From a virus, in IMG/VR virus record IMGVR_UViG_3300027976_000028, positions 2,055-66,054 of that record: 64,000 bases of DNA. One strand, 5' to 3'. Each line of letters begins with the position of its first letter. Within the stretch, counting starts at the first letter, position 1. A model generated the notes under the pieces. That model saw only the letters and a list, made by a program, of their open reading frames with translations. It was not told the origin of the DNA and did not search any database. The position numbers were made by a program, and so were the translations under genes. Below, in pieces: positions 10,168 to 44,848 of this stretch.

Positions 10168-11220
10168 ATGAAACTTTCTGAACTCCATACCATTATAGAA
10201 GATGAGGGCGGTGGTGCGTCTGCTGGTGCTACATCAAGTGGGGATATTGCCACTGTATCATTCCCGTTAATGACAAGGGGTAAGAACAAAAAAGCAAGAT
10301 TTGCAGCCGGTCGTAAAGCAGTTGGACTAAGTGGAAGTGTTACAAGTTACATTGGCAAGGGCGTGTATGAAGGTAGTGGCGCAGGGATAGGAAAGAAGCA
10401 TATTAGCCCAAGTGGAGTTAAAACTAACATGCCACCATCAGACGAGGATTATGAGATCAACTACGGTAAGAAAGGGGTTGCTGCGAAAGGCATCGGAGAA
10501 GCCCACACACTTGACAACAACAGTGTTATCTACAAATTGGATCCAACTGATCCAATGAACAAAACAGAGGTTATGGTGTTAGGCGGTGCAGGTCGTTATA
10601 CATTGTCCTCTCTGCGTAATAAAGCACGAAAAGAAGCGCAAGCATTAACAACCGATTTACAAGCTGAACATGGTGGTTCATTCCGCAGTGCAGCATATAA
10701 TATTAAACAATTAACAAATACACTGAATACCATCGTTGCTGCTTATAATGAATTAAAAAGAATTAGGCAGAAAGGCGGTCGAGGCTCCCGTGGCATTACA
10801 GACGAGGATGCAAATTTCGTCCGCGAACACCTTGAGACACTTGAACAATATGTTATTATTGTATCAGAAGCAAGGGGACTTACTGCTAATTTCAAAACAG
10901 CATTGAAAGAAGGCAAGTTAAACAAGATGCATACAGATGCAATATCGGGCATGTACCACCTTGGCATAGATCCGGGTTATGAGATGTACAGATGGTCAAT
11001 TCACACCGCTGGAAACAAAGGAGGACCAGACGCTGGACTTGGTCCAAAAGCAGGACCATTCGCCTTCGCATACACCGACGAAGAGGATGTTATGATCCGC
11101 AATGCAGTGAAAGCAATGGGTGGCAAAATTAAAACATTGTCCGCACGCGGTAGTATCGAGTCTGACGATGTCAATAAAGTCAGTGCAATTCCGGTGTTGA
11201 ATTGGAAGAAGATTCATTAA
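10168..11220 (+). CDS. Putative internal head protein with Glu-delimited modules
   Basis: MKLSELHTIIE leader; internal VYE/IGE/VSE/LKE sites; TATAAATA 4 nt upstream. Confidence 0.7.
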   Translation: MKLSELHTIIEDEGGGASAGATSSGDIATVSFPLMTRGKNKKARFAAGRKAVGLSGSVTSYIGKGVYEGSGAGIGKKHISPSGVKTNMPPSDEDYEINYGKKGVAAKGIGEAHTLDNNSVIYKLDPTDPMNKTEVMVLGGAGRYTLSSLRNKARKEAQALTTDLQAEHGGSFRSAAYNIKQLTNTLNTIVAAYNELKRIRQKGGRGSRGITDEDANFVREHLETLEQYVIIVSEARGLTANFKTALKEGKLNKMHTDAISGMYHLGIDPGYEMYRWSIHTAGNKGGPDAGLGPKAGPFAFAYTDEEDVMIRNAVKAMGGKIKTLSARGSIESDDVNKVSAIPVLNWKKIH

Positions 11221-11580
11221 CAAGTAGTTGAGTTAAACGGACATTATTTCTTTTCGTACGAGTTGCAGCTTTTTCTTCAGAAGACCTACTTGTCTGAGCA
11301 ATGCTCATATTATGACGAATTATTGCCTTTTCTTCGGGCGATTTATTTTTCTTAGTTTCACTTATTTTTTGCCGGGTTGCTGCTGTTCGAGGAATACCAA
11401 TATCTAATTTGGGTTCAATTTTTGAGCTGTGTTTTCCGTAGTAATGTCGCTTTTCTACGATGTTTGTGATGCGATATACGCAATGATAAATAGGTTCGTT
11501 GGTCATATAATCCTTAATGGGGGTTGACTAATGACAGCGGTATTACAAGTACGCGGCTGTCACCTATTCTATTTAGTCTA
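11180..11580 (-). mobile_element. Internally deleted GIY-YIG/NUMOD3 homing endonuclease cassette (copy 1; ORF 11180..11506)
   Basis: Cassette CTAAATAGAATAGGTGACAGCCGC..GCTGTCATTAGTCAACC..AAGGATTATATGACCAAC; ORF VYRITNIVEKRHYYGKHSS joined directly to a NUMOD3-like PRTAATRQKISETKK. Confidence 0.75.
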
Positions 11581-11617
11581 AATCGATAAATATAACTATG
11601 AAAATGAAGGCCATAAA

Positions 11618-14600
11618 ATGATCACACTTAAAATTCTGCATGAAGGCAAATTTCAGAAACAAATCTCCAGCCGCGTGCATGAAGGAATTGTCATTGAGCA
11701 ACTAACAAGGTATAAAGGACTTGTTGACGAGATTCAATATTCCGGAGAGTTAACTGAAGGTGCAAGAGAAGTAATGCAGCGAGTTGCCAAAAAAGTAGTA
11801 CCAGCAGCTCTCGCAGCAGGAATGGCGATGGGCACACACGGAGCAATGGCGCAAAATAATCCGCATTACCCCGGCCTAAACAAAAGCATTGGCCAGCATG
11901 TATCTGATATCTTTAGCCCCAACTACAATGAAATACAACGGCAACGCCAGTATGAAAGGCAAACACAGCAACGCGAATGGGATGCTAAACAGAATGAAAT
12001 TCGCCAAGCCCGCGTGCGTGATGCAAGAAATTCTGGTCGTGATGCCACTGGACAGCCGCGTGGCAATGTAAAAGTATATGACCAAGCACGCCGTTCAGCT
12101 GACGGCAAGTACTTTCTGTTGTATGACATGGATGATCGCATCACACGGATTCCCGTCAACGGTACGGAGTATATGGAGGCTGATTCTCAACGCCTCCCTC
12201 ACTATATTGCACCAAACGGCTCGGTATATTATGTACGGAGTCCAGCAGCAAATGCGCAACCAACAGAGCAAATGGTAGCAGATGGACTTGGGGCAACACC
12301 AATGATACCAGCAAGTGGTACTGGTGCAGAAAAGCGAGCAGGCGGAGCAGCAGTGGCCGGAGTAGGTAGTACAGGTAGTGTTGGTGTTGCTCCTAAAACA
12401 ACACCTGCGGCCGCTATTGCCGCGGCCGGTATAAATCCACTTGATGCCGATGACGAAGTTATTTCAAATCCAGATGGCACAACAAATTTAAGTATTAAGA
12501 ACGGCGAACTTGTCATTGATAAGCCCGGTGTTAACGAAGCAAAGGGGTTAGCCAAGAAAGTTAAAGTTGTTAAAGGCGAACACGCTAGTAAGACAGGCTA
12601 TATTCGCCAAATTAAACATGGTGCATTTAAAGGTGCTCCGAAAACATACTATATAGATCTTGAGGATGGCACGCAAGCAAATAACATACCCGCTTCGTCA
12701 TTACGTTTAGTCAAAGATGCGCCAGTAACCGAAGGCGGCACATCAAATGATCTACAAGCAATATTAGATCAATACTCTGAGTCGTATGCAGACTTTAAAG
12801 AAGGTGGTGACTTAACGGATAATGACGCATTCTTCCAGGCACTATTTGATTATTTTAGCAACTCTGGCGATATGCCTTATGGTGTTGCCAAAGCACGCGA
12901 TGGAGATCCTGTCCAATGGATCACAGATAGATTAGATGATTTATCGGGTATGGGCGATAAAGTAGCAGAAAGCGACCCAAGTGGACTTATGCACGCCGCA
13001 AAAACAATGAATAACGAATGGCGCATTACAGCAATGATGGATGATGGCAAGGTAAAGAAATTCCGAGTTAGAACACAGAGTGCAAGAACAGCACAGGAGA
13101 AATTTAAGAAAATCCATGCCACCGCACAAATTCAAAATGTTGAACGCATCGCCGAATCACAAATTGAAGGGACGGCACCAGTCAACGAGTTTTACGATTC
13201 AAGTATTGATAGAAATGATGATAGCTATGGTCCCGATGATTTGCATCTTTATATCAATGTCGCTAAAAAACTTGATATGAAGAAATACAAAACAGAAACT
13301 GCACATACTCTAATTTCCAAAAAAATGGCAGGATTAGTTGCGACAGTTGATGATGACAAGGTTACCTACGCTTATCAAACTGCACAAAAAGAGCAAGGGT
13401 TGCCTCATCTATTAGGCGAAGCCGATTTAGCATTTGATGCTGACGATACACTGTATACACTCACTGATACCTATCGCGATATCATGTCATCTGATGCGTA
13501 CGATACTGACAACAAGCAACAAATTGGATTGTTGTATGATATGTTAAGGGATCCATTAATGGCAGGGGATGAAGATGAATATTATAAAGTTCACGCTTAC
13601 TTACACGCAAAGTACCCAGACGCAATGGACGAACTATTAAGAGCAGCAGACCACCTAGCTCAAGGACCGCTATCAGAAAACCCACTATCACCAACCACTA
13701 GATTCCGTAGTATTCATGGCAATTACTGCGGTACCGGTAATCGTGGTGGTATGCCAACTGACAAGTTAGACCGTGCATGTTTCCATCACGACGTAGGTTA
13801 CAAAAAATCAAGAGAGTTGCCAGATAAAGACGCGGCGCTTGCTGCAAGAGTTATCGCAGATACTCGTTTCATGGATAGGGTGAATAAGATTCAGCATGAT
13901 AAAAGCTACTCGGCTTCAGTTAGATTTAAAGCCAGGATATTTGGCAACTATTTTAAGATAAAGAACAGAAATGCAGTTCCAGTAGGTGTTATTGAAGGCA
14001 CACATGATTACGCTAAACAGTTCACGAGTATGATGGACAAAATCAAATCAAAGAAAATGGTCACTGACCGTAGCACCGGCGTTGAGTATGATCCCGAAGA
14101 GGAATTTCTCAAGCTGTTACAGCAACATAAAGCACAATTTCAAGGAATGGCTGCAATTGAAAAAGCACAGAAGAGAGGTGTAGCAGAATCATTAAATAAA
14201 GATAGATACGACCAAGAGCCCATTGATCAACTTGACGATCAAATAAGTGACATTCTGCTTCGTGCTTATGAGAAACACGATAATCGAGATGATGTCATTG
14301 CAGCAGCATGGCCGGCTGCAAAGCAAGCAGCACAAGAGTTGAGTATTGATCCGACGGGCAAAAGCTTTCATACCGTTTGGAAATTGGCAATTGGTAGCGA
14401 TGCTGAGTACGCAGATGAAAATCCAGCAATGGCAGACACTACAAAGCGGCTACAAGATCCAAATGATGGTAAAACTGCCAAACTAAGAGCAAGCGGCGAT
14501 AAGAAACGCGACGGTCACCAATCTCAATCATATGGATATGTCCAAGACATTCCAGATATTGATGCAGATGATGTCTTGGCGATAAGTAGTGCTATGAAAC

Positions 14601-14662
14601 CCGTATTCGAGGCGCAGACGCGTGTTGGTAAAATCATCAAATCAGTTTTTGGAACAAAATAA
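11618..14662 (+). CDS. 1014-aa modular protein with a phospholipase A2 module and a KOW/SH3-like module
   Basis: HGNYCGTGNRGGMPTDKLDRACFHHDVGY at 13715-13801; about 13 [LIV]xE sites. Confidence 0.75.
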   Translation: MITLKILHEGKFQKQISSRVHEGIVIEQLTRYKGLVDEIQYSGELTEGAREVMQRVAKKVVPAALAAGMAMGTHGAMAQNNPHYPGLNKSIGQHVSDIFSPNYNEIQRQRQYERQTQQREWDAKQNEIRQARVRDARNSGRDATGQPRGNVKVYDQARRSADGKYFLLYDMDDRITRIPVNGTEYMEADSQRLPHYIAPNGSVYYVRSPAANAQPTEQMVADGLGATPMIPASGTGAEKRAGGAAVAGVGSTGSVGVAPKTTPAAAIAAAGINPLDADDEVISNPDGTTNLSIKNGELVIDKPGVNEAKGLAKKVKVVKGEHASKTGYIRQIKHGAFKGAPKTYYIDLEDGTQANNIPASSLRLVKDAPVTEGGTSNDLQAILDQYSESYADFKEGGDLTDNDAFFQALFDYFSNSGDMPYGVAKARDGDPVQWITDRLDDLSGMGDKVAESDPSGLMHAAKTMNNEWRITAMMDDGKVKKFRVRTQSARTAQEKFKKIHATAQIQNVERIAESQIEGTAPVNEFYDSSIDRNDDSYGPDDLHLYINVAKKLDMKKYKTETAHTLISKKMAGLVATVDDDKVTYAYQTAQKEQGLPHLLGEADLAFDADDTLYTLTDTYRDIMSSDAYDTDNKQQIGLLYDMLRDPLMAGDEDEYYKVHAYLHAKYPDAMDELLRAADHLAQGPLSENPLSPTTRFRSIHGNYCGTGNRGGMPTDKLDRACFHHDVGYKKSRELPDKDAALAARVIADTRFMDRVNKIQHDKSYSASVRFKARIFGNYFKIKNRNAVPVGVIEGTHDYAKQFTSMMDKIKSKKMVTDRSTGVEYDPEEEFLKLLQQHKAQFQGMAAIEKAQKRGVAESLNKDRYDQEPIDQLDDQISDILLRAYEKHDNRDDVIAAAWPAAKQAAQELSIDPTGKSFHTVWKLAIGSDAEYADENPAMADTTKRLQDPNDGKTAKLRASGDKKRDGHQSQSYGYVQDIPDIDADDVLAISSAMKPVFEAQTRVGKIIKSVFGTK

Positions 14663-14663
14663 A

Positions 14664-16808
14664 ATGAAATTCTTTACAGAAATTAAAACAGTTAGTGAAG
14701 CATCGGTTGCTGCAGGCCCACGCACCAACGTTGAAGAAATGTTCAACCAGGACACATATGCTGGTAATCCTGGTGAGTTTGATAAAAGTGACCCACATGC
14801 CAAGCCCAAATTGGCACCAAAGAAGAAAAATCCCAACGATGGCAAATTTGTTCAACATGGCGCAAAAGTTCCCCGTGGATATACAATGACTGCTCATGGG
14901 CGGGTTGTTAAAGAAGTGGCCAAAGACGGCCAGGTTGATGAAGGCGGACAATTCAGTTACGGTGCAAAGGACCCAAAGAAGGGCAGCCAAAGAGAATTAA
15001 GCGCAAAGGCAAACAAAGATGCCAAGAGTAAGTCAACACCAATCGAGCCCAAGGATCAAATGGTTGGCATCGCCAAGGTTACGAAAGTTAAAGAAGGACT
15101 CGCTGATGATTTCATGGCATCTATTGACAAGAAGAAATTCCCCCAGGCACGCATAGTTGGTAATGTTGATGCACAGAAAAAAGAGCGTGACGAGATGATT
15201 GCAAAACGCACCGCTGATAATGCAAACAAACCAACACCCGTTAAAGGTCCCGGCGATTTAGCAGCTGGCTTTGGGCAGAATAAAGGCTACGGTCAGGGTC
15301 GGTACATGGGTGATTCTAAAATCAATGCTGCAAGTGCAGTTACCGAAGCAGGTGGCGAGAAGAACTATGGTGTTCGCTACAAAGTATTCGCGAGTAAAGA
15401 AGGTAGACTTACTACAAAAGAATATTGGACAACATCGTCTGAGAAATTAGAAAGAGCTGCAACGAAGATTGAGGAATTGGGTAACTTCCACTCTATCGAC
15501 GGGTATAGCTATCCTCCTGAACCACAGGGCATGGCAGAAGGTGATCAAAGCAAAAGTGCATCTGCCAGCCGTGCAAAAGAAGCACACGAGCAAAACCTTG
15601 ATGCAGCACATAGGGAATTGATGCAGCGTGATGCAGATGGTGAGGATATGAGTGGATATCATGTCAATCCCCGTACATACAAAATTCAGAAGCAGCTACC
15701 GGGCAAAAAGTGGACGCAAGAAGAACAGCGGGCGCATATGATTGATAGAATGCGTAATGAAGGATTAGAGGAAGCCAGCGTCATGACATCGGGTCACAAA
15801 GGATATGACGCCATGCTATCAATTATGAAAGCAGCCGCCGCCGGTCGTGCAGCCACATTTACCATTGGCGAAGAAGAACTTACATTAGATTACAACGAAG
15901 CTACATTCTTAGCAGGAAAATACAAGGCATTCCTAAAAGCAGGTAGACAAGAAGAGTTCCTGAAGTATATGGAAAGTCCACGGCTGTTTGATCGTTTAAT
16001 GTCACAGTTGCGCACGATGATTGATAAGCAAAAGAACTTCAAAGGTTCTGTACAAGGCGATCGTCAAGTGCCCGGCGAGAAAAGCAGTCCTTTTGAAAGT
16101 GTTACCGAAGGGCATGTGGGTCCAACGCATAAAGATTGGGCATCTGCTGTTCAACGGGTTAAACAAAACAAGTTTAAAACAAGTGATCTTGTAAATTCGG
16201 TACAAAGTGTACCATATAAGCATCTTGCACAATTAGCACGAGATTCTGGACTCACCCCATCTGACGAGATGTTGAAACATGAGAACAAAAGTAAAGTAAA
16301 AAATGTCGCCGAAGGGCACTGTTCTCCTGGTGACAAAGTGAAGATTGATAATCCAAGTTCAATCCATCATGGAAAGACAGCCACCGTTGTTTCTCACAAT
16401 AAAGAAACTGATAAGACCATTGTTAAGCACTCTGGCGGCAAAACAATGAGTGTTGACCATATGTATCTTGAGAAAATTAAGGCCACTAAGAAGATCAATG
16501 AACTTAGCCCAAAGACACTTGGCTCGTATGCTAAGAAGGCATCAAGTTCAAGCGACGAAAGAAGCAATTCCAGCTTATCGTCACGCGCCGCCTACAAATT
16601 AGCAAACGATGAAAGAAATGATGACGGAGACGAAGACGATCATAAGTCATTCATGCGCTCAAAGGGAATTGCAAAAGCTGTTGATAGATTGACCAAGGAA
16701 AGTCCCTCATTGAAAGAAGGGCAATACTTCTGCCTAAGAGACAATGTTGCCAAGGTAATCCCAACCGGTTATAAGTTACTTGAGAGTGGCTTCATTGCAA
16801 GGAAATGA
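14664..16808 (+). CDS. 714-aa modular, charged putative internal head polyprotein
   Basis: MKFFTEIKTVSE leader; about 12 [LIVM]xE sites incl. INE-LSPKTLGSYAKKA; start reassigned to ATG after the upstream TAA. Confidence 0.7.
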   Translation: MKFFTEIKTVSEASVAAGPRTNVEEMFNQDTYAGNPGEFDKSDPHAKPKLAPKKKNPNDGKFVQHGAKVPRGYTMTAHGRVVKEVAKDGQVDEGGQFSYGAKDPKKGSQRELSAKANKDAKSKSTPIEPKDQMVGIAKVTKVKEGLADDFMASIDKKKFPQARIVGNVDAQKKERDEMIAKRTADNANKPTPVKGPGDLAAGFGQNKGYGQGRYMGDSKINAASAVTEAGGEKNYGVRYKVFASKEGRLTTKEYWTTSSEKLERAATKIEELGNFHSIDGYSYPPEPQGMAEGDQSKSASASRAKEAHEQNLDAAHRELMQRDADGEDMSGYHVNPRTYKIQKQLPGKKWTQEEQRAHMIDRMRNEGLEEASVMTSGHKGYDAMLSIMKAAAAGRAATFTIGEEELTLDYNEATFLAGKYKAFLKAGRQEEFLKYMESPRLFDRLMSQLRTMIDKQKNFKGSVQGDRQVPGEKSSPFESVTEGHVGPTHKDWASAVQRVKQNKFKTSDLVNSVQSVPYKHLAQLARDSGLTPSDEMLKHENKSKVKNVAEGHCSPGDKVKIDNPSSIHHGKTATVVSHNKETDKTIVKHSGGKTMSVDHMYLEKIKATKKINELSPKTLGSYAKKASSSSDERSNSSLSSRAAYKLANDERNDDGDEDDHKSFMRSKGIAKAVDRLTKESPSLKEGQYFCLRDNVAKVIPTGYKLLESGFIARK

Positions 16809-17434
16809 TTATGGAACTTACAGTACTTACAGTAGATCAATTACAAGAATGTTTGCCTAACGCACGCCGAGAGCGTCTTGAATTTTTCGTTGATGGTATT
16901 AACGAAACATTCGAACAATTTGAGATTGATACACCGCAGCGCATGGCAATGTTTCTTGCTCAAACTGCCCACGAATCTGCTAACTTCTCTGCTGTTGAGG
17001 AAAATTTAAACTACTCAGCCAAGGGCTTATTGGGCACATGGCCAAAGCGTTTTCGTGGCGTAGAGAATCAATATGCCCGCAAGCCACAACAAATTGCCAA
17101 CAGAGCATATTGTGATCGCATGGGCAATGGTTCAGAATCAAGTGGTGATGGATGGAAATACCGTGGCCGCGGCCTGATTCAACTTACTGGCCAAGACAAT
17201 TACCGTACCTGTGGAGATGCATTGAATCTCAATTTACTCGATGATCCTGATATGGCTTCAAAAAATCCAGCAGCAGTGCTTAGTGCAGGATGGTTCTGGA
17301 CCACTCGTCGTTTAAATGAGATAAGTGATTCAGGCGATGTAGCAAAGGCCACAAAGGTTATCAATGGCGGTTCTAATGGTCTACTTGATCGGCAATCTAA
17401 GTATCAACATATTATAAATGTGCTTAGTGCATAA
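16805..17434 (+). CDS. Glycoside hydrolase family 19 endolysin
   Basis: FLAQTAHESANF..EENLNYS..DGWKYRGRGLIQLTG..NY..SAGWFW..TKVINGG. Confidence 0.92.
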   Translation: MIMELTVLTVDQLQECLPNARRERLEFFVDGINETFEQFEIDTPQRMAMFLAQTAHESANFSAVEENLNYSAKGLLGTWPKRFRGVENQYARKPQQIANRAYCDRMGNGSESSGDGWKYRGRGLIQLTGQDNYRTCGDALNLNLLDDPDMASKNPAAVLSAGWFWTTRRLNEISDSGDVAKATKVINGGSNGLLDRQSKYQHIINVLSA

Positions 17435-17446
17435 CATCCTTGGTCA

Positions 17447-17653
17447 TTATATCCCCCACCGCAACACAAACAATACTAAATCTTCCTTGTCTTTGAAATA
17501 GATAGTTTCAAACCCATTTGTGTACCAAACCATGTCCTCATTCCAAAGAGAGCACTGTACACCATTTCCAAATGTAGTACTACACCATTCAATTATATCC
17601 TCCCACGGCGCTAGACCATTGTACTGCCAGGCGGTATAATCCAAACTAGTCAC
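17447..17653 (-). CDS. Small protein, FxxxxDxxxFxLRW paralog family
   Basis: C-terminus YFKDKEDLVLFVLRWGI. Confidence 0.65.
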   Translation of the reverse strand: MTSLDYTAWQYNGLAPWEDIIEWCSTTFGNGVQCSLWNEDMVWYTNGFETIYFKDKEDLVLFVLRWGI

Positions 17654-17871
17654 CTACCCCACCGTAAGTTAAACCATGCAAGGTCTTCAGCAGACGAGAA
17701 AAAGAAATCATACTTATTAAGATTAATCCGGTGATAAGCAAGATGTACATTTACCTTGATATCAGCATAATGATTATAGTTTGTAATGTAAGTTGGGCAA
17801 TTTAATTTAGCCCAAATAAGTGCATCATCTACTATTGCCTCATCTACAATTGCGATAAAACTCATGCCCAT
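17650..17871 (-). CDS. Small protein, FxxxxDxxxFxLRW paralog family
   Basis: C-terminus FFSSAEDLAWFNLRWGR. Confidence 0.65.
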   Translation of the reverse strand: MGMSFIAIVDEAIVDDALIWAKLNCPTYITNYNHYADIKVNVHLAYHRINLNKYDFFFSSAEDLAWFNLRWGR

Positions 17872-18305
17872 CTCAACTTAAAATACATATAGTCTTCTTG
17901 GTCCTTAAAGGCAACGAATACAATATCGACACCGCTGATCTCATTAATCTCCCACTCACTGTCGGCATCGTATCTAAACACACGAAAGAAATCGTGGCGT
18001 ACTTTATCGCAACAGTTATCCTCACACCAATCGACTATATCGTCAAAACCATATCTATATCCGCCGGGGCCATAATCATATTTTAAAGTATATGCGTAAT
18101 GCTTACTGCTTTCGAACCCGTGAACATATTGGTAGCCGTGATAATAGTCCTTCACGCGAGTAGCACGATAGGAAATATCAGGATCGTTTTTGCGATTATA
18201 TTGCTTCCATGTTGCACATCCGTTTTTCTTAAGAAGGCGATCATCGGACCATGCTTTATATTTCGCCTGTACCTTTGGGAATAGTAGTGGTAGTAAACTA
18301 TCCAT
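17862..18305 (-). CDS. Protein of the FxxxxDxxxFxLRW paralog family with N-terminal extension
   Basis: C-terminus AFKDQEDYMYFKLRWA. Confidence 0.7.
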   Translation of the reverse strand: MDSLLPLLFPKVQAKYKAWSDDRLLKKNGCATWKQYNRKNDPDISYRATRVKDYYHGYQYVHGFESSKHYAYTLKYDYGPGGYRYGFDDIVDWCEDNCCDKVRHDFFRVFRYDADSEWEINEISGVDIVFVAFKDQEDYMYFKLRWA

Positions 18306-19098: not shown

Positions 19099-19101
19099 AA
19101 A

Positions 19102-36025: not shown

Positions 36026-36031
36026 TTGTCC

Positions 36032-36526: not shown

Positions 36527-36616
36527 GTGATATTTAGCAAACTCAGTAGTATTATATAATAAACCAGATTTAATGTCAATGTTTCGTCCCATATTATGGT
36601 AAAATCGAGCTCGTGT

Positions 36617-36848
36617 TTGACTAAATAGAATAGGTGACAGCCGCGGTATTGAGCCACCCGCTGTCATTAGTCAACCCAGATTAAAGGATTATATGACCAA
36701 CGAAACTATTTATGCAGCCACTTTCTATGTTTATGCTTACATACGAAAACATGACTCTATTACTGCCAAAGCAGGTAAAGGCAGAACTCACACAGATGAG
36801 ACCAAACAAAAGATGCGAGATGCCTATGCAAGTCGCAAAAAATCTTAG
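36617..36848 (+). mobile_element. Miniature GIY-YIG/NUMOD3 cassette (copy 2; residual 51-aa ORF 36693..36848)
   Basis: Same 5' cassette; ORF MTNETIYAATFYVYAYIRKHDSITAKAG fused to KGRTHTDETKQKM. Confidence 0.8.
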
Positions 36849-37360
36849 GCCTGTACTTTATCGTCTTGCAGTGGGTCTAAAGTGTTGAGTTCCTCATCAT
36901 ACGCAGTTTCTACTGAATCTGCATCAATGTCCTCTGCATCCTTCAAATCCTCAGTGATATTTAATAATTGTTTTGGCATTCTGATATTTACAAGCCATAC
37001 GGACTTGTATTCAATTCGAGGAATATGATCGCCTTCCTTGGTAATGATAATATCGTTAGGTCCTTTAACTTTTACAAAAGTCTCGAACTTATCCTTGCCC
37101 ATCTTCACCTTACACCCGCTCTTAATCAGACGCATAGCAGCGTCAGGATCAGGCATCATTTTGTTTGGATACATTAACGTTAGTTCGACCCAATGACGCT
37201 CAATAAATGGGCCGTCAACAATTTCACCATATAACCAATTGTCATATGCATACACATCCATACGATCAAAAATACGGTCAATCTCGCATAGCGTGTCAAT
37301 AACGTTAGAAGAATTGTGAATTGAATCGAGATTCTTATAGATAGAGTTTTGTTTTGGCAT
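36845..37360 (-). CDS. Hypothetical protein
   Basis: Start reassigned to MPKQNS downstream of CTAAATA; YAYDNWLYGEIVDGP..MMPDPDAAMRL. Confidence 0.7.
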   Translation of the reverse strand: MPKQNSIYKNLDSIHNSSNVIDTLCEIDRIFDRMDVYAYDNWLYGEIVDGPFIERHWVELTLMYPNKMMPDPDAAMRLIKSGCKVKMGKDKFETFVKVKGPNDIIITKEGDHIPRIEYKSVWLVNIRMPKQLLNITEDLKDAEDIDADSVETAYDEELNTLDPLQDDKVQA

Positions 37361-37514
37361 CGTACTCTTATTTAGCAGTTTGTTGCCATAACCACGCCCG
37401 GTTAACAGATATAGGTAAATAATTTTGGTGCAGCAATGCACTAAAACCCGCAAACGGGTGACACTAAATTTAAGATAATCATAACCACCCGTCAATGTAA
37501 AAACCGGAGTCTGA

Positions 37515-38291
37515 ATGAAGAATAAGCCTAAAAGTAGACTAGATGCGACGCGTAGAAGTGCTCGCAGCACACGTTTTGCAAATCAAGGTAATGAAGTAAT
37601 AGACCTTAATACCTTTCGTGAACCAGAAAGACCTTCAAAATTTACCAAACGAGTTGATATCTATCCTCGTAATGATGCCCAGGAGCAATATTTAGATCAA
37701 TTAATGGACGAGAATAACCGAATTGTTATTGCATCGGGCAGCGCCGGAACTGGCAAAAGCTATATGGCAACATTAGCAGCAATTAAATTCCTAAGGGAAG
37801 GATCCACCTCAAAAATTATAATTACCCGCCCAATGGTTGAGGTAGAGAACGAGCAAGTGGGGTTTTTACCTGGCGACCTTAACGAAAAACTTGCTCCATG
37901 GGTACGACCGTTGATGGACATATTCGAAGAACACTATACAAAATATGCCATTGCAAAAATGCTTGCAGACGGCGTTATTGAAGTGTCTCCTCTAAGTTTC
38001 ATGCGTGGAAGATCATTCCGGAATGCAATTATAATTGCAGATGAAATGCAAAATGCAACCCCTAATCAGATGTTAATGTTACTTACACGTATATCAACAA
38101 ACTCTAGGATTCTGCTCACTGGCGACACGCGCCAAACTGATAGATACGGTGATCAAAACGGGCTGGTTAATCTGCTTACTAGGTTGCAGAACTCAGAACG
38201 CGATGGTATTGTATATACTCTGTTTGATAAACGCCATGTTGAGCGAGATCCAATTGTATCCGAGGTCCTTGACCTGTACGAAGAATGCTAA
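37515..38291 (+). CDS. phoH: PhoH-family ATPase
   Basis: GSAGTGKS, IIITRP, GFLPGDLNEKLAPW, FMRGRSF, DEMQN, GDTRQTD. Confidence 0.95.
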   Translation: MKNKPKSRLDATRRSARSTRFANQGNEVIDLNTFREPERPSKFTKRVDIYPRNDAQEQYLDQLMDENNRIVIASGSAGTGKSYMATLAAIKFLREGSTSKIIITRPMVEVENEQVGFLPGDLNEKLAPWVRPLMDIFEEHYTKYAIAKMLADGVIEVSPLSFMRGRSFRNAIIIADEMQNATPNQMLMLLTRISTNSRILLTGDTRQTDRYGDQNGLVNLLTRLQNSERDGIVYTLFDKRHVERDPIVSEVLDLYEEC

Positions 38292-38869
38292 TTCTCTAAA
38301 GTAACAATCTTATAGATGTCGTTCCACGTTTGCACACGTGGAACGATTCCATTATATGAGGTGTTATGCGGGTTATTCATAAGCAATGGGCGTAACCCGT
38401 ATTTGTAGGCAAGTTCTGAGTTACTTGGTTTATCCTCAATCCAAAAATATCCACTATCCTTATAGTGCATTAACTGTTCACCCTTGTCATGATGTATGCC
38501 CAATACGTACAGTTCGTTTATTGCATCGGCACCAAATACATTATCCAAATTTCGTCTACGTAAGCCACATGTCCATGGATGGGAACCAGCGGTAGTTATT
38601 GCGATAATCTTATAACCTGCATCTTTGAATTTACGTATACCTTCTACACTGTCTCTCCACGGAGACAACGATTCAAAGTCAGAAGATGCATTAAATTTGG
38701 AAATTAATTCAAGGCTAGCTGCATGGGTGAGTCCCAATTGTTTGCCAAGGCTGTATTCATTCATATACCTGTCATCAAATGTATGACCAAGACGAATTGC
38801 AAAGGTTTTAAACTTAGCTTCCCAATCCAAAATTACGCCGTCGCAATCTGTCAAAAGTACTTTATCCAC
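38288..38869 (-). CDS. HAD-superfamily 5'(3')-nucleotidase-like protein
   Basis: LTDCDGVILDW motif I; WIEDKPSN motif. Confidence 0.8.
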   Translation of the reverse strand: MDKVLLTDCDGVILDWEAKFKTFAIRLGHTFDDRYMNEYSLGKQLGLTHAASLELISKFNASSDFESLSPWRDSVEGIRKFKDAGYKIIAITTAGSHPWTCGLRRRNLDNVFGADAINELYVLGIHHDKGEQLMHYKDSGYFWIEDKPSNSELAYKYGLRPLLMNNPHNTSYNGIVPRVQTWNDIYKIVTLEN

Positions 38870-39791
38870 GGGCTAATATTTCCAATTCACAAAGAGTTGC
38901 ACTCAAATTGATCTCGGCATCTGCACATAGGGAATGGTTCACTAGCCCTTTGCGGATTAACAACAATGCTTGATCTTGTATGTCACTATCAAGGCCCCAA
39001 AGGTCAAGGTTGCGATACATAAAGCGGAACATATCTTCATATTCCTCTAATGTGATTTGTTTAATAATCAAATCGCGAGCTTCGCGATAACGTCCTTTAT
39101 GAAACAAGTCAACCATAGCGAGTTTGTAGTCACTTTCAGCGTCATCAGCTTTTACAGCTTCCAACTTGCCCGACGCACTGCGCATCTGTATCGTATTAAT
39201 TGCCTTCCGTAAATCTGGATAGCACGCCTTCACATACATGTCAAGAGTTGCTAGATCAAAATCAATATTTTCAGTAATAAGGATAGTGGCCAAGCGGGCA
39301 GTGAATTCAGTTTGGTCGACATTCTTAAATGCCATTGTTTGCAGCCGAGAATGCAATGCTGGAATGATTTTGTTTGGATAGTTGCAAGTTAGTATAAAGC
39401 GTACACCATCACTGTACTGTTCAAGCATCCCTCGTAGAATTGCTTGTGCAGGTGGCGATATAAAATCTGACTCGTCAAGTAGTACAACTTTGAACTTTCC
39501 CATTGGCATCGTGCTGCAGAAATTGGTTATCTTATTGCGTAAAATATCAACCCCGTTATCACGTGAGGCGTTTAGGTGCATAAAGTCCCCTGGATCAATA
39601 GCAAGTTCGTTGACTAATATTTTGGCCAGTGTAGTTTTTCCAGTGCCTGCCGAACCCGACAGCAGGAGGTGTGGGATATATTGATCCTTAATCCAAGTCT
39701 TAATCGTATTTTCTTGTTCTTTGTTTATCCAAACATAATCGCTTACTGTTGCAGGCCGATACAACTCTACCCATAATGGTTTAATTGACAT
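38862..39791 (-). CDS. Sliding-clamp loader ATPase subunit (T4 gp44/RFC-small-like)
   Basis: LWVELYRP, GSAGTGKT, LNASRDNG, LDESD, LHSRL. Confidence 0.92.
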   Translation of the reverse strand: MSIKPLWVELYRPATVSDYVWINKEQENTIKTWIKDQYIPHLLLSGSAGTGKTTLAKILVNELAIDPGDFMHLNASRDNGVDILRNKITNFCSTMPMGKFKVVLLDESDFISPPAQAILRGMLEQYSDGVRFILTCNYPNKIIPALHSRLQTMAFKNVDQTEFTARLATILITENIDFDLATLDMYVKACYPDLRKAINTIQMRSASGKLEAVKADDAESDYKLAMVDLFHKGRYREARDLIIKQITLEEYEDMFRFMYRNLDLWGLDSDIQDQALLLIRKGLVNHSLCADAEINLSATLCELEILARG

Positions 39792-39859
39792 TTACTTCCT
39801 CTTCTGATGTTAGTATGCAGTATAACATTATTCCAGGACAATTGTCAATAGCTTGTTGT

Positions 39860-40027
39860 TCAAACCACCTCTTCGATTACTCCAAGGACCTCAGCGATAA
39901 TGAACAGTACACCAGCAGTAACAAGACTACCGCCAATTAATGCTACGCCTGCAATAATTCTGATTGCACTCTTGGCAAGGCTTACATAAAAGTGGCCTTT
40001 GCTTGTATCTTTAGTTTGAATATTCAT
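39860..40027 (-). CDS. Small membrane protein
   Basis: Hydrophobic 55-aa ORF from MNIQTKD. Confidence 0.55.
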   Translation of the reverse strand: MNIQTKDTSKGHFYVSLAKSAIRIIAGVALIGGSLVTAGVLFIIAEVLGVIEEVV

Positions 40028-40029
40028 TG

Positions 40030-40611
40030 CTATGTTCTCCATTTGAATTCTGTAAAATGTGTGTTGCGATACTTAGTTAACCATTCAAGGGCTCGATTAC
40101 TATCTGCAGCCCACCCCGGTAAATATGAGTCAAATTCTTCTTGGGTGTGGCGTTCCCACTCTATGCTTTTTGTTGGTACTACGTTAGCAGCAAGGTGTTC
40201 AATTGCTTCATCAAGTGTTCGTTTACTATTATCACCAAAAGCCAGGTTGATATTATATGCAGCGTGCTTATCAAGCCCCTTGATAGTATCAATGCCCAAC
40301 ATTCCTTCTACATGACATTTCTCACAAGAACATGGAATACATGTGCAATCTCCGGCGTGCCTATTCATCAACTCAGAAATATAGCATTCGAATAGCTCGT
40401 TGACGCGGTTGTCAACAAAGTTTACTTCGTTGGGCTTTACAATTCTACGAACCCGTTTAACGTCAAAATACTTTTCGCCAAGGTAAAAATGCGCCTCGAA
40501 AATAATATCTTCGTATTCTTTAAGCTTAATTTTGTACCACAGTTCCTTCTTCTCTTGCCCATCAAGTTCAACAGTAGTCCGAAGAGGATTTTGTGCGTAT
40601 GTGATTCTCAT
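40030..40611 (-). CDS. Hypothetical protein with a Cys/His cluster
   Basis: HAGDCTCIPCSCEKCH. Confidence 0.7.
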   Translation of the reverse strand: MRITYAQNPLRTTVELDGQEKKELWYKIKLKEYEDIIFEAHFYLGEKYFDVKRVRRIVKPNEVNFVDNRVNELFECYISELMNRHAGDCTCIPCSCEKCHVEGMLGIDTIKGLDKHAAYNINLAFGDNSKRTLDEAIEHLAANVVPTKSIEWERHTQEEFDSYLPGWAADSNRALEWLTKYRNTHFTEFKWRT

Positions 40612-40802
40612 TGTTAGCTTATATTGTATTCAAAGTATACCAAGGACCAATTGTTTGTATCAGTTGCCTCTGGTGTACATGGACGTACCTTCAATATCCT
40701 GTGGCATTAAGCGAGTTAAGTTGTCTAACTAAATCTGCAATATCTGTCCAAGATATTGTTACTGAACTATAACTTACCCGCCTGAATACCATCGTTATTC
40801 TC

Positions 40803-41186
40803 TTATTGTAATATTGGTCGCAAAAATTCCGATGGGTCAATACTATCCGGTGCAGTACTTGTATTCCTGCCAATAAAGTCATCAAACGGTGCTTCATCTT
40901 GCACTGCAAGGATTTCATCATTGTCAAGCAGCACCAATTTAAGATCCTTGCCATTGTGTTCAATGGTGGTTTGGTTCGACCATCGACCATGTGCAACCAG
41001 TACATACTGGCCAGGAGTAACCCAATCAATTTTCTCGCCGACCATTTGAATTTTAGCCCAGCGTGGACGGATGCCGCGTTCTTTGCCGTTCTCTCCAGCG
41101 ATAATAATGCCAGCTTTTGTCACGCGCTCATCCATGCCAAGCAGAGTAGCAAGGATCTTCTTTGGTAAAGGTTTAATAGTTTGCAT
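40803..41186 (-). CDS. GroES-like co-chaperonin
   Basis: IKPLPKKIL..VTKAGIII..VGEKID.VTPGQYVL..NDEILAV. Confidence 0.75.
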   Translation of the reverse strand: MQTIKPLPKKILATLLGMDERVTKAGIIIAGENGKERGIRPRWAKIQMVGEKIDWVTPGQYVLVAHGRWSNQTTIEHNGKDLKLVLLDNDEILAVQDEAPFDDFIGRNTSTAPDSIDPSEFLRPILQ

Positions 41187-41554
41187 TATGTGTTTAGTGT
41201 AGGTAGTTCGATAATTTGGATGCTGCCGTCGCTATATTCAACTTCGGTGCTCAAGCCATCTGCAGATGGTCTGCTACTAACTATAGTTGGACCGGTAGGT
41301 GTCGACGCTGCTGGTCCAACTATAGTTTCGTCGGCTTTCAGACTAACTTGTTGCACACCTTTATTCTGCAATGCAGAATTAGCTCGACTAATAGTTTGGT
41401 TTGGAATGGTTACCTTTCCATAAGCATCAACGACATCGCCGCGGCCGTTCATTGAAGAATTGCCAACTGCCTTTGTGTCGCCATTTTTATCTGCAAACGC
41501 GCCCATATTAAACTCGCGCCCAGCATAAGTTTTGTACTTTGAATTTGCACTCAT
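41186..41554 (-). CDS. Hypothetical protein
   Basis: YKTYAGREFNM..AVGNSSMNGRGD; coupled ORF. Confidence 0.7.
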   Translation of the reverse strand: MSANSKYKTYAGREFNMGAFADKNGDTKAVGNSSMNGRGDVVDAYGKVTIPNQTISRANSALQNKGVQQVSLKADETIVGPAASTPTGPTIVSSRPSADGLSTEVEYSDGSIQIIELPTLNT

Positions 41555-42027
41555 CTTATAAATTCCCTTATATCTAAATTATATTTAACAGCATCAACTG
41601 AGTGTAGTCCTATCAAAAACAACAGATATGAAGATACACTTGATCCCCGTCCTACCCCCCACACTATGTTATTTTCTCGCATTACTCTAACCAAATAAAT
41701 CATAAAACGCAACATTGGTTCCATCTTACGTTCGCGATACAATACTAATTCTTCAACTACACGCATCGTTTCATCTAATGTAGTTACCTTCTCTGTAAAG
41801 TATATATCTAAATCTAACGCCAGTATATCAGACGGAACATTCCATTGTTGTAATGCTTCGTCTACTGTATTATGCAATGGCTTTGCTACAAATATTGGGT
41901 CTTGTCCAATCTCATAACACCCTAATATATAATCGTCTAACAACGAGTCATTGATAGTTAGTATGCCGCCCTTATTCTGGTATAATAACTCAACAAGATC
42001 TGACTCAGATAACATTGTCACGGGCAT
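41551..42027 (-). CDS. DNA polymerase III alpha (DnaE)-like fragment
   Basis: WGVGRGSSVSSYLLFLIGLHSVDAVKYNLDIREFIR*; ends before the PDxD motif. Confidence 0.75.
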   Translation of the reverse strand: MPVTMLSESDLVELLYQNKGGILTINDSLLDDYILGCYEIGQDPIFVAKPLHNTVDEALQQWNVPSDILALDLDIYFTEKVTTLDETMRVVEELVLYRERKMEPMLRFMIYLVRVMRENNIVWGVGRGSSVSSYLLFLIGLHSVDAVKYNLDIREFIR

Positions 42028-42248
42028 ATACTATCTTTAAATGGGTCATTATCACCTTTTTCTGCTGTAAATCTCTGCTTATATCCAATTTCAAACATTG
42101 CGCTTCTAATCGATTCTAAATGAGATAGCATTTGATTCATAGCTTCTTGATTGCTTCCGGCATTATATGCAGCCGTATATTTCTTACTGATAAACGATTG
42201 CCGTTCCATCAATTGATCAAAAGTCATAGTTAGATAATTTGCATCCAT
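42018..42248 (-). CDS. Hypothetical protein
   Basis: 76-aa helical ORF in the operon. Confidence 0.6.
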   Translation of the reverse strand: MDANYLTMTFDQLMERQSFISKKYTAAYNAGSNQEAMNQMLSHLESIRSAMFEIGYKQRFTAEKGDNDPFKDSICP

Positions 42249-42256
42249 AATTTAAG

Positions 42257-42583
42257 TTATACCGAAAAGCTTGATCCACACCCGCAACTAGATGTTGCTG
42301 AAGGATTGTTAATTGCAAAACTAGAGCCGTTTAAGTCATCCTTATAGGAAATTTCTGAATCACGCAGGTATTGCATACTCATTGAATCTACTACTACTTT
42401 AACACCTTCTTTGTCAAATGTAAAGTCGTCTTCGTTCGTTTCTTCATCAAACGAAAAGCCATATGACATACCAGAACACCCACCACCTTGCACAAATATT
42501 CTTAGGGACATGCTACTCAATGTATCATCTTCTGCAAAAATGCTTTTAATCTTTGTAACTGCTGATTCTGTAATGTTAATCAT
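42257..42583 (-). CDS. erpA: A-type Fe-S carrier ErpA/IscA
   Basis: [35 protein letters not shown]. Confidence 0.92.
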
Positions 42584-42586
42584 ATA

Positions 42587-42793
42587 TTAACTCCTTGTTA
42601 TAATGTTAATTATCTCTTCCTTCTTATCGCGAGTATTTATGGTAATATCATGAACATGGGCGTATGCAATAACTTGCTTTTTTGTTAGCAGTGATAACTT
42701 GGCAGGATTGTGGCGTAAAGAAACAATCAAAGGTTCACTAATTGTTGCAATTGTATTATCAATTTCTATGCCAAGAAACGTTTTAATTGACAC
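42587..42793 (-). CDS. Small protein with a Rho-N/HeH-like helical pattern
   Basis: LTKKQVIAYAHVHDI..KKEEIINII. Confidence 0.45.
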   Translation of the reverse strand: MSIKTFLGIEIDNTIATISEPLIVSLRHNPAKLSLLTKKQVIAYAHVHDITINTRDKKEEIINIITRS

Positions 42794-43058
42794 TCTGTTC
42801 TCCTATGACTATACTTGCAAACATTGCGTCATTTTCATTCTCAAACAAAAAACAGGCATCGCCGTTTGCAGAAAATGCCCACCCGGTCCAGCCAAATGAC
42901 AACTCTTCCACTTTGTTAAGAATGTCATGTGGGATTCCTGCTTCACAAAACGGATTAAGTGGCTTACAAGCATAAACCGTTGACCATACTGTTTTCGGTT
43001 TTAAATCAGTTGAAAAACTATATGATTTCTTAAAGTCTCTTATGTCAAGTTGTTTCAT
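42783..43058 (-). CDS. Hypothetical protein (distant FxxxxD paralog)
   Basis: WTGWAF..FLFENENDAMF. Confidence 0.55.
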   Translation of the reverse strand: MKQLDIRDFKKSYSFSTDLKPKTVWSTVYACKPLNPFCEAGIPHDILNKVEELSFGWTGWAFSANGDACFLFENENDAMFASIVIGEQSVN

Positions 43059-43066
43059 TTCTTCGC

Positions 43067-43282
43067 TTATATGTAATAATAATCATTGTTTACTTCAGTA
43101 AATCGCTCTATAAAACTTTCAAGATAACAACGGTATTCTCTACATTCAACAGCAGCTGACCTATCTTTAGATTCTTCTCGATAATGAATCCACACACGTC
43201 CTTGCAGCTCACTCACGTGTATCACACGGAACTATCTGTGGCTTGGGCTGACCCATACACTGTCACTGTTCACTATCGTCAT
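43067..43282 (-). pseudogene. Small gene interrupted by an in-frame TAG
   Basis: MTIVNSDSVWVSPSHR*FRVIHVSELQGRVWIHY..REYRCYLESFIERF; TAG at 43232-43234. Confidence 0.5.
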
Positions 43283-43359
43283 GCCTAATCCTTTATTTGA
43301 AAACTTCCATGGCATCAGTTTCTATATTTTCTGTCATACGCAACATATACCTGTAGTTA

Positions 43360-43851
43360 TCAGTAATCCGCAAAAAGATCCTCGTTATCGTCTCTATGTC
43401 CTTGCCTACCAGCCATGTTGTTATCGGTTTCACGAACTTCAACTCTTGTGCACCAAACCCTTGCTGCTTCAGACGACCCGCAGTTTGGAAGGAATATGCC
43501 GTTAATATACTTATAAAGGAAATCTGCGATGCCCTCGCATCCAGTTTTCTCTACTTCTGTAATCTTTGCTAGGCCAAGTGTCTGTAAATTTTTAATTTCT
43601 GCATACAGCGGGTCATTTGTGGCCAATAATAAACAATGATCAAATTTATCTTCTAAGAATTCTTTAAGAGGTTTCAGCCCACCAAAATCAGTTACCCAGT
43701 TACGGGCATCTAGTGTGTCTGATTCAAATTCAAAATGGAATGACATGGCGTAACCGTGAATTTTGTTACAATGTGAGTCTGCACGCCATTGTCGATATGC
43801 GACTGGTCCCAGTTGTTTGTATGTTTTAGTACTAAAATATTTGTTTGCCAT
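43360..43851 (-). CDS. queD: 6-pyruvoyl-tetrahydropterin synthase / QueD-like protein
   Basis: HCNKIHGY..DFGGLK..FDH..E..A..VEVRETDNN; GGAG SD. Confidence 0.88.
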   Translation of the reverse strand: MANKYFSTKTYKQLGPVAYRQWRADSHCNKIHGYAMSFHFEFESDTLDARNWVTDFGGLKPLKEFLEDKFDHCLLLATNDPLYAEIKNLQTLGLAKITEVEKTGCEGIADFLYKYINGIFLPNCGSSEAARVWCTRVEVRETDNNMAGRQGHRDDNEDLFADY

Positions 43852-43876
43852 TGTTATCTCCTGTTTGATTAGCAAT

Positions 43877-43919
43877 GACATGCAGAGTTTCTAAAGCGGG
43901 ATGAATGCCTAAGTCCGCT
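43877..43919 (-). promoter_or_regulatory. Candidate pseudoknot in the queD 5' UTR
   Basis: P1 AGCGG/CCGCT; loop GGCAT complementary to downstream ATGTC; TATAAATA directly upstream. Confidence 0.4.
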
Positions 43920-43986
43920 GTTGTTATTTATACAGATGTTAACGACCTGATAACTCGTTAATGCCAAGTTTATTATACAATAATTT

Positions 43987-44015
43987 ATTATACAATAACA
44001 TTAAGGAAATGTCAA
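43987..44015 (-). promoter_or_regulatory. Sigma70 consensus promoter
   Basis: TTGACA-N17-TATAAT upstream of queD. Confidence 0.8.
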
Positions 44016-44032
44016 TACCTACGTGTCGATTC

Positions 44033-44848
44033 GGCTAAATAGAAGTGGTGACAGCCGCGGTACGGAAATACCCGCTGTCATTAGTCAACCAGATTAAGGA
44101 TTATATGACCAACAAAACTATTTATACAGCGATTTTCTATGTTTACGCTTATTTACGAAGTAAAGATTCAAAAACTGCAAAAGCTGGTACACCTTACTAT
44201 ATCGGTAAAGGAAAGGACCAAAGGGCATGGAATAAACATAGAAATGCACCTGTCCCAAACGATAAATCACATATCGTACTTCTTGAAACCAATTTAACTG
44301 AAATTGGAGCATTTGCAATCGAACGCAGAATGATTTGTTGGTATGGCAGAAAGGATCTTGGTGGTATTCTGCTCAATCGGACAGATGGCGGAGAAGGAGT
44401 AAGTGGGTATATTCGTTCAGTTGGATCAATTGCCAAGTCCACTGCTGCTAATATAGGTAGGGTTCATTCTACCAAATCAAAGGCAAAGATTTCAAAGGCA
44501 AATCTTGGGCAGAGACGCACAGAAGAACAAAAGGAAAAATATCGGCTGGTGCGCGGCGAGTTATATACACAAGGCATGTTCGGAAAAACACATTCGGAAG
44601 AATCCAAAGATAAAATGAGTGTTGCACAAACTGGACATATTTGTTCCAGTGAAACAAGGGTTAAAATTGGCGACAAAAACCGTGGGCGTACTCGATCTGA
44701 TGAATATAAGGCTACTAAGAGTACAGATATGTTAGGGGAAAATAATCACATGTTCGGAAAAACACATTCAGTAGAAACTAAGGCCAAAATTAGTGCTACA
44801 AAAAAACGTCAACATGCTGAATTAGCCTCTCAGCGTCAAAATCCTTAA
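44033..44848 (+). mobile_element. Intact GIY-YIG/NUMOD3 homing endonuclease cassette (copy 3; ORF 44105..44848)
   Basis: [35 protein letters not shown] plus four NUMOD3-like repeats (e.g. [13 protein letters not shown]); same 5' cassette. Confidence 0.88.

Follow-up and report, generated by a model that had tools for sequence, protein, structure and literature searches.

Three copies of a promoter-and-hairpin cassette lie in a 64,000-nt stretch of viral DNA (positions 2,055 to 66,054 of IMG/VR record IMGVR_UViG_3300027976_000028; hereafter, the window), where they precede one intact and two decayed genes of GIY-YIG homing endonucleases. The window is a piece of a jumbo myovirus genome, distantly related to PA5oct, Atu_ph07 and the Rak2-like phages; the virus record to which it belongs spans 71 kb and is only ~21% complete. 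The cassettes had been noticed in an earlier inspection of the letters alone (the sequence-only reading), which took them for a mobile or regulatory module akin to miniature inverted-repeat transposable elements (MITEs). Indeed, the core pattern GGTGACAGCCGC-N-GCTGTCATTAGTCAACC is matched exactly three times in the window, at the places first reported, with 0 matches expected from 100 shuffles. No fourth copy was found in the window when up to three mismatches were allowed, and none was found elsewhere in the 71-kb record. ARAGORN detected no tRNA or tmRNA in the window.

Each cassette begins with a putative late-promoter box (late box), followed by a first hairpin (HP1), a second hairpin (HP2), the start codon and an inverted late box. 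The parts of the three copies are listed below, numbered by position; R1 is a covariance model of the element, described in the next section, and L-numbers denote loci of the wider family.

Copy 3
44047-44090, plus strand: core pattern
44035..44041, plus strand: sense late box CTAAATA, at the box position of model R1
44047..44082, plus strand: HP1 (fold -17.1 kcal/mol; R1 50.8 bits, E=2e-10)
44084..44109, plus strand: HP2, class B, with GUCA (44084-44087) against UGAC of the start region (44106-44109), as paired by RNAalifold
44105..44848, plus strand: homing endonuclease gene, GIY-YIG with three NUMOD3 repeats, 247 amino acids (aa), overlapping the 3' end of an exonuclease gene by 27 nt
44119..44125, minus strand: inverted late box ATAAATA, within codons 5-7 (ACT ATT TAT)

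Copy 2
36633-36676, plus strand: core pattern
36621..36627, plus strand: sense late box CTAAATA
36633..36668, plus strand: HP1, inner stem GGU/ACC (R1 49.3 bits)
36693..36848, plus strand: 51-codon in-frame deletion remnant, its stop codon overlapping that of a convergent virion gene
36707..36713, minus strand: inverted late box ATAAATA

Copy 1
11522-11564, minus strand: core pattern
11570..11576, minus strand: sense late box CTAAATA, back-to-back with a host late box at 11586-11592 (plus strand)
11530..11564, minus strand: HP1, inner stem GUA/UAC (R1 44.9 bits), the same as in L019, loop included
11180..11506, minus strand: 108-codon remnant of a second GIY-YIG subtype, overlapping the 3' end of a convergent gene by 41 nt
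11486..11492, plus strand: inverted late box ATAAATA

All three copies run antisense to both neighbours, and each 3' end overlaps that of its convergent neighbour to the extent listed. The outer stem is constant in this local family, whereas the inner stem varies yet pairs in all three copies (GGTA/TACC, GGT/ACC and GTA/TAC), and relatives carry GATA/TATC and GATG/CATC. In copy 3, the outer stem GACAGC/GCTGTC is extended by a U-A and two G.U pairs and is separated from the inner stem by an internal loop with CGC opposite C; the loop of HP2, a weak helix of 4 bp, holds the Shine-Dalgarno sequence (SD) AAGGA (44096-44100). The sequence-only reading was right in these particulars, and its worry that the short copy 2 might be an assembly artefact can be put aside, because contigs from other studies match the window over 36631-37544 and 36624-37248 with 0 differences. 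Assembly breaks do occur at the cassette, and loose contig ends run into further family members.

A further pairing had been proposed between GACTA, which overlaps the promoter, and TAGTC. It survives in part: an 8-bp UUGACUAA/UUAGUCAA stem forms in most single folds, but it is confined to the clade of the window copies (the window clade) and needs a transcript that starts upstream of the promoter box. Inspection by eye, with no formal test, found no counterpart of this GACUAA/UUAGUC basal stem in the 3' flanks of the wider family, and in the window clade it stands as a predicted, unproven pairing.

The gene of copy 3 is intact, as had been claimed. Its open reading frame (ORF) carries three NUMOD3 repeats that match Pfam PF07460 (E=2.7e-18), and its product resembles PHROG 314, "homing endonuclease" (2e-21); no match to the Pfam GIY-YIG family PF01541 was obtained at E<=1, and blastn of copy 3 against GenBank phages came back empty. 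All 24 family-invariant columns, as judged across 24 family members, are kept, including YVY (Y12, Y14), TPYYIGKG, R40, E73 and N91, for which catalytic roles may be assigned by analogy. An AlphaFold2 (AF2) model (predicted local distance difference test, pLDDT, 75) places strands at residues 11-17, 30-37 and 57-64 and a helix at 66-80. The best three of 48,161 chains compared with its N-terminal domain are all GIY-YIG proteins, namely PD-T4-3 (Z 6.9), UvrC (1ycz, Z 5.8) and I-TevI (1ln0, Z 5.5), with Z values modest overall and unrelated chains reaching at most 4.1. The modelled three-stranded sheet and helix are consistent with the GIY-YIG catalytic fold; a Foldseek search of the full-length model against the PDB gave no match at E<=0.001. 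The copy 3 family has more than 7,700 relatives and is a divergent GIY-YIG branch.

The leader module and its wider family

The 80 nearest family loci in IMG/VR were surveyed, most of which have the same layout. The covariance model R1 gave 70 matches in 542 kb, every one directly 5' of an endonuclease gene and on the sense strand; 58 of the 80 loci were positive, and 15 matches came from non-seed loci. On whole phage records, 12 more matches were obtained (seven in one complete 210-kb genome), all preceding endonuclease-like ORFs, which comprise GIY-YIG types I, III and IV and two HNH genes. The suggestion that the module travels with different endonuclease subtypes therefore holds more widely than first stated, extending to four GIY-YIG subtypes and to HNH. 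The commonest stem variant occurs in at least 120 viral contigs.

When the whole window was compared by blastn with ~90 kb of cassette-bearing loci, the shared sequence was the ~95-bp cassette, at 85-95% identity; its ends are sharp, one at the sense box and the other at CTATTTAT. Apart from this, window and loci had just an unrelated early-promoter repeat in common, and the window flanks showed no synteny with these loci. The HP1 sequences of copy 1 and L019 are identical, loop included, ahead of different nuclease subtypes, which we read as exchange of the module by recombination. A T4-like contig carries two paralogous genes with a homologous leader, the outer stem of which is GACGGC/GCCGTC, not GACAGC/GCTGTC. 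The repeats are thus very probably copies of a ~95-bp portable leader module of homing endonuclease genes (HEGs), one that unrelated nuclease genes of many uncultured phages, both T4-like and jumbo, have in common and have evidently exchanged by recombination.

Across the family, the module follows a single order: the late box [ACG]TAAATA, HP1, HP2 reaching onto the SD or AUG, the start codon, and the inverted late box in the first codons. Covariation in a 50-sequence alignment indicates that HP1 is under selection for pairing. Here, 92.8% of cells are paired, whereas shuffled partners reach 66% and slid partners 30-45%. Both members vary in 11 of the 12 pairs, and the six outer-stem pairs stay intact across 23 different stems. 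Invariant in the alignment are the bulged C24 and C26, the pair G27-C41, and U51 and A52. The spacing from box to stem is 3-8 nt, with a mode of 5, in 59 of 65 elements; it is 8 nt in the window clade, where the stem is longer by three pairs, two of them G.U.

HP2 occurs in two classes. In class A, the five bases after the invariant YUA pair with the five before CAGC-AUG, at the 3' end of the SD; in class B, which includes the window, pairing involves AUG+2, and GUCA-AUGAC covaries with GACA-AUGUC. In its fixed register, HP2 has 4.11 of 5 positions paired versus 2.69 for permuted partners, a value reached by 0 of 2000 permutations. This significance is limited to the fixed register, since a free-register search did no better than shuffled sequences (4.84 vs 4.50). 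The HP2 of the window, with only 4 bp, does not appear in single-sequence minimum-energy folds.

The inverted box TATTTA, the reverse complement of the late box, occupies a fixed position in 60 of 75 elements, the background being 6%. Its Ile codon is always ATT, the hexamer lies in another reading frame in 9 of 59 cases, and it occurs even before HNH genes. Because the box is conserved regardless of frame, and even before HNH genes, the first codons belong to the module, at the two ends of which the late boxes stand face to face. In one such HNH gene (L187:1478-1600), the long ORF begins at a GTG, in a frame differing from that of the leader ATG-TGT-ATT-TAT; the first codons of this leader are thus kept as DNA, not as peptide. 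A conserved antisense ORF, ending at the TAG/TAA opposite the invariant YUA, was considered and rejected, its median open frame being ~10 codons.

Known catalogues returned nothing comparable. The window has no Rfam match at gathering score, and the element has none at E<=1 in L102, L108 and L145, which are among the best-scoring loci. R1 found no matches in T4, Aeromonas phage 25, PA5oct, Motura or S-SRM01, and the commonest variant had no blastn match among GenBank phages. Scanning for patterns tied to the promoter or the SD alone brought in L034 only. Certain loci without the element (L124, L128, L130, L147, L148 and L154) share another leader, composed of a terminator-like hairpin, TATAAATA and a short conserved stretch (ctaatgcg...). 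A segment further upstream looks complementary to that stretch, and these loci may represent a second type of leader.

Insertion sites, decay and putative late promoters

Empty sites, for which the sequence-only reading had suggested a search, were found in relatives for all three copies (G001, G002, L078 and L079). The sites and the additional DNA that accompanies two of the inserts are as follows.

Copy 1 site, between g10168 and g11618: gap of 9 nt in G001 vs 397 nt in the window
Copy 2 site, between two virion genes: genes overlapping by ~37 nt in L078 and L079 vs a gap of 321 nt in the window
Copy 3 site, between the exonuclease and QueD genes: gap of 63 nt in G002 vs 940 nt in the window
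36527..36616, minus strand: promoters of the copy 2 insert for the downstream virion gene (sigma70-type at 36579-36551; late box at 36537)
43882..44032, minus strand: additional upstream DNA of the copy 3 insert, with a sigma70-type promoter at 44015-43987 (12/12 match) and a late box at 43931, aimed at QueD

All three copies are antisense insertions between co-directional phage genes, their sites being empty in syntenic relatives. Optional between conserved genes and absent in relatives, the three genes would class as free-standing HEGs. The inserts of copies 2 and 3 carry a perfect sigma70-type promoter and a late box directed towards the downstream host gene; in copy 3, the stretch that holds them (43882..44032) is missing from the 63-nt spacer of G002. 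That relative also has a gene of a fourth GIY-YIG subtype (G002:32518-33267; 225 aa, with a C-terminal zinc-finger-like CPHC...C) behind the same leader (L095:14213-14267). It lies antisense on the opposite side of the exonuclease gene that copy 3 abuts, and the exonuclease gene may be a recurrent homing target.

The two short copies were correctly described as internally deleted. In copy 2, the N-terminal 28 residues of an L019-like enzyme are joined in frame to a terminal NUMOD3 repeat (21.4 bits against a PF07460 cut-off of 20.4). Copy 1 belongs to a second subtype and retains the first ~38 residues of an L046-like enzyme together with NUMOD3-like repeats, with the core deleted; its best value against PF01541 is only E=0.2. 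In both remnants (11180-11506 and 36693-36848), the start, the N-terminal strand and the NUMOD3 repeats are retained in frame, and both could still be made as small, nuclease-inactive DNA-binding proteins.

That the cassette outlives the nuclease body, as had been proposed, is borne out by copies 1 and 2 and by L012. The latter has a frameshifted copy and, at L012:497-523, a solo left half of the cassette. At L034:385-440 (= L043:7374-7430), HP1 has collapsed to GGCGACAGCCGCGG|TCATTAGTC, while box, SD and start are kept ahead of a truncated 61-codon gene. The series from intact gene through in-frame deletion, frameshift and hairpin collapse to solo half-cassette is the ordinary decay path of HEGs. 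Goddard and Burt reportedly described, in 1999, a homing-endonuclease life cycle of invasion, fixation, degeneration and loss. Similarly, intact, internally deleted, frameshifted and near-fully deleted copies are found here side by side, with empty sites in relatives; the difference is that the leader outlasts the nuclease body in 3 of 5 decayed copies.

CTAAATA, which the sequence-only reading had treated as a promoter, proved to be a genuine gene-start-associated box in this phage. Twenty-two of 36 occurrences of [AC]TAAATA lie within 50 nt upstream of long-ORF starts, compared with 4 of 36 for the G/T variants, and the box precedes virion genes and other ORFs, often 4-5 nt ahead of the ATG. 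From this position and the T4 consensus TATAAATA, we infer that it is a T4-type late promoter box; a clamp-loader gene is also present in the window. The PA5oct paper treats sigma70-like promoters only and does not cover late boxes.

Several further promoter arrangements were noted in the window. Late boxes stand 4-5 nt before the ATG of long ORFs at 1543, 2283, 10157, 20349, 24868, 36537, 55311 and 58561, which suggests leaderless or near-leaderless late mRNAs; on the late-box positions, likely virion gene starts move to 36526 and 37360. Two minus-strand sites, 22044 and 31262, have CTAAATA within the loop of a GC-rich hairpin, beyond which come a T-run and then an ATG; the arrangement looks like a terminator merged with the promoter of the next gene. 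A repeated early-promoter cassette, with a short hairpin, TTGACA-N17-TATAAT and the conserved leader TAATACTTAAACAGCAA, lies at 51939-52037 and 52417-52505 (minus strand), and is also multi-copy in L012, L015, L036 and L046 (~80% identity, flanks unrelated).

Possible modes of action

The element is likely to act at the RNA level, and the leader most likely holds nuclease expression low, possibly via a small antisense RNA. The explanation as a whole, in which the repeats are 5' control leaders of three free-standing HEGs, one alive and two decayed, and work through an antisense RNA, we regard as evenly balanced. In the proposed mechanism, late RNA polymerase would start at the foot of HP1, and the resulting mRNA would have its 5' end sealed and its ribosome site masked in part. 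From the inverted box, a cis-antisense RNA of 70-90 nt would be transcribed over the AUG and SD, ending at HP1 as read on the other strand and then in the U-rich complement of the sense box. Pairing of this RNA with the leader would keep translation of the nuclease low. That such a cis-antisense RNA exists and is functional seems to us slightly short of an even proposition. A fuller version, plausible yet more tentative, would make the module a dedicated portable antisense-RNA unit. Its face-to-face late promoters would yield the nuclease mRNA and also a 70-90-nt antisense RNA, which carries a U-tail and two mirror hairpins and obstructs the ribosome site; GIY-YIG and HNH genes of T4-like and jumbo phages would exchange this unit, which would be kept at decayed genes since it also terminates and restarts host transcription.

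Several observations point to folding of the antisense strand. In rows outside the window clade, the non-Watson-Crick cells of HP1 are 25 of the A.C type, which are G.U on the antisense strand, versus three of the G.U type; the corresponding counts in HP2 are 21 and six. The antisense-strand fold of the leaders is better by 3.9 kcal/mol, a difference that comes to 0 in control segments of HEG coding sequence and to 2.4 in shuffles of matched composition; composition thus accounts for ~60% of the folding bias, and the excess over the shuffles is still significant. Beyond HP1, the antisense tail is rich in U, also in elements that lack the sense box. Moreover, the element is enriched in HEGs that are antisense to both neighbours (29:13 vs 2:12; Fisher p=5e-4, on crude ORF calls).

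A number of points weigh against the antisense-RNA mechanism. Beyond the share of the folding asymmetry owed to base composition, the wobble counts are phylogenetically non-independent. Within the window clade itself, the pairs added to the stem are of the G.U type when read on the sense strand, folding of that strand is equal or better, and the antisense U-tract begins 3-4 nt from the stem. The inverted box is broken (TACTTA) in 13 of 75 elements, a simple terminator scan calls HP1 on neither strand, and 13 cassette-bearing HEGs are co-oriented with their neighbours. Not one G.U occurs in the outer stem in 50 sequences; this is uncommon among RNA helices, and a structure formed in the DNA would fit it as well. 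The antisense model gives no reason for the pair of invariant bulged C's or for the unvarying UA that follows the stem. Finally, the points at which transcription begins, the antisense RNA and the place where it ends are predictions.

A leader that acts on the sense strand only is an alternative we consider rather unlikely. Here, a 5'-terminal HP1 would guard the late mRNA from 5'-end-dependent decay and HP2 would mask the SD or AUG, attenuating translation, with the inverted box incidental and no antisense RNA. By the T4 rule, the modal 5-nt spacing puts +1 on the first paired base of HP1. The window clade, with its 8-nt spacing, adds three pairs of which the two G.U are valid only on the sense strand, and HP2 touches the SD or AUG, a contact relevant only in mRNA. 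Precedent is provided by the hairpins of T4 that mask the ribosome-binding site (RBS), and by that of seg43(25) just upstream of its RBS (PMC2988022). A sense-only leader, however, does not account for an inverted box conserved in its nucleotides irrespective of frame, for the preponderance of antisense-type wobbles or for the antisense stability excess over composition-matched shuffles, and the 3-nt spacing found in 11 elements would start the transcript inside the stem. The U-rich antisense tail after HP1, seen also in AAAAAAAT-type flanks that have no late box, could instead mean that HP1 serves the host genes, as an intrinsic terminator or insulator for phage transcripts running antisense through the HEG; the upstream gene would gain a defined 3' end, and the insert promoters would restart the downstream gene. 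The association with antisense-oriented HEGs, the perfect sigma70 promoters and late boxes brought by the copy 2 and 3 inserts, and the persistence of intact cassettes at decayed HEGs all agree with this explanation. Yet a terminator needs neither bulged C's nor HP2 nor an inverted box, the site is not called by the terminator scan, and the co-oriented HEGs do not fit. In addition, the flanking genes are co-transcribed or overlapping at empty sites, and termination between them is therefore unneeded. A role in host-gene termination is thus improbable.

The invariant C24, C26, G27-C41 and U51-A52 amid freely varying stems would be typical of a structure-specific protein site, and I-TevI does repress its own late promoter (PMC2988022). 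HP1 with its bulged C's might accordingly be the binding site of a repressor of transcription or translation, either the endonuclease itself, via NUMOD3, or a factor of phage or host origin. We hold this quite improbable, because the element also precedes four GIY-YIG subtypes and HNH genes without NUMOD3 similarity, and is found in distant phage lineages that share few regulators; that the stem sequence varies freely and that the module also stands before HNH genes lowers the chances of the NUMOD3-binding autoregulation raised by the sequence-only reading. Highly improbable is the MITE-like family of that reading, with non-autonomous short copies mobilised in trans and the hairpin as recognition signal. 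The short copies are indeed internal-deletion derivatives that keep a shared end module, bounded by 7-nt inverted boxes, and trans-homing of a defunct endonuclease gene is reported from T4 (PMC2790892). Nevertheless, the junctions have no target-site duplications, there is no transposase, and no inverted repeat is present other than the two promoter boxes, which are used genome-wide. Each short copy stands at a unique site and derives from a different subtype, the contigs compared show no presence/absence polymorphism, and the decay series (frameshifts, the L034 hairpin collapse, the L012 solo half-cassette) resembles erosion, not propagation. The MITE-like reading is therefore not supported, with no sign that the short copies move independently.

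Comparison with known control systems

The closest parallels to a leader that restrains nuclease expression are found in T4-type HEGs. I-TevI, I-TevII, I-TevIII and segB, and mobE of Aeh1, have a late promoter and an RBS-sequestering hairpin (PMC2988022). As in the present case, these are selfish nuclease genes of T4-like phages with their own late box and a leader hairpin at the ribosome site (a predicted contact in the window), presumably restricting nuclease translation. In T4, however, the promoter lies inside the hairpin, such that late transcripts escape the mask, whereas the box described here lies 3-8 nt upstream of HP1 and hence also upstream of HP2. Moreover, each T4 gene has its own leader, in contrast to the single covarying module, first codons and inverted box included, that is found here across unrelated nuclease families.

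The seg43(25) gene of Aeromonas phage 25 has a stable hairpin immediately upstream of its RBS, which is not sequestered (PMC2988022). It too is a free-standing GIY-YIG endonuclease gene with a hairpin between promoter region and RBS, but the motif is another one, and R1 has no match in the phage 25 genome even at E<=1. The T4 gene segD, for which no promoter was found, is a free-standing GIY-YIG gene lying antisense between genes 23 and 24 (PMC2988022). It shares with the window genes the antisense position between two co-directional late genes and the hairpin or terminator structures at the ends; the window genes differ in their clear late box and have no sequence match to segD.

Homing endonucleases are abundant selfish genes in large phages, and what is known of their toleration comes only from a few genes of T4, whose leaders differ from gene to gene. 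The structured leader described here covaries strongly and is common to nuclease families that are unrelated to one another, in uncultured phage contigs that number at least in the hundreds. It offers a defined RNA element with which to study the limits on nuclease expression and the transfer of regulatory modules from one mobile gene to another. The leader may also explain the retention of dead endonuclease gene remnants, and its covariance model is a practical marker with which endonuclease genes of the free-standing kind, decayed ones included, can be located in metagenomic contigs of phages.

Toxic or selfish genes are controlled by cis-antisense RNAs in hok/sok, symE/SymR, IS10 RNA-OUT and P22 sar. 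The module would resemble these systems in its close, face-to-face putative promoters, in a predicted small RNA complementary to SD and AUG and ending in a terminator hairpin, and in the harmful nature of the target gene. It differs in that the antisense RNA is only predicted, both putative promoters are of the same late class, and the module is portable between nuclease genes. If the antisense-unit reading is true, this would amount to a policing of selfish nucleases in the manner of type I toxin-antitoxin systems, undescribed in Rfam and in the T4 literature searched. The principle of a late promoter combined with a leader hairpin is already known from T4 and Aeh1 (PMC2988022), to which the present leaders add a shared portable module with a second, inverted box.

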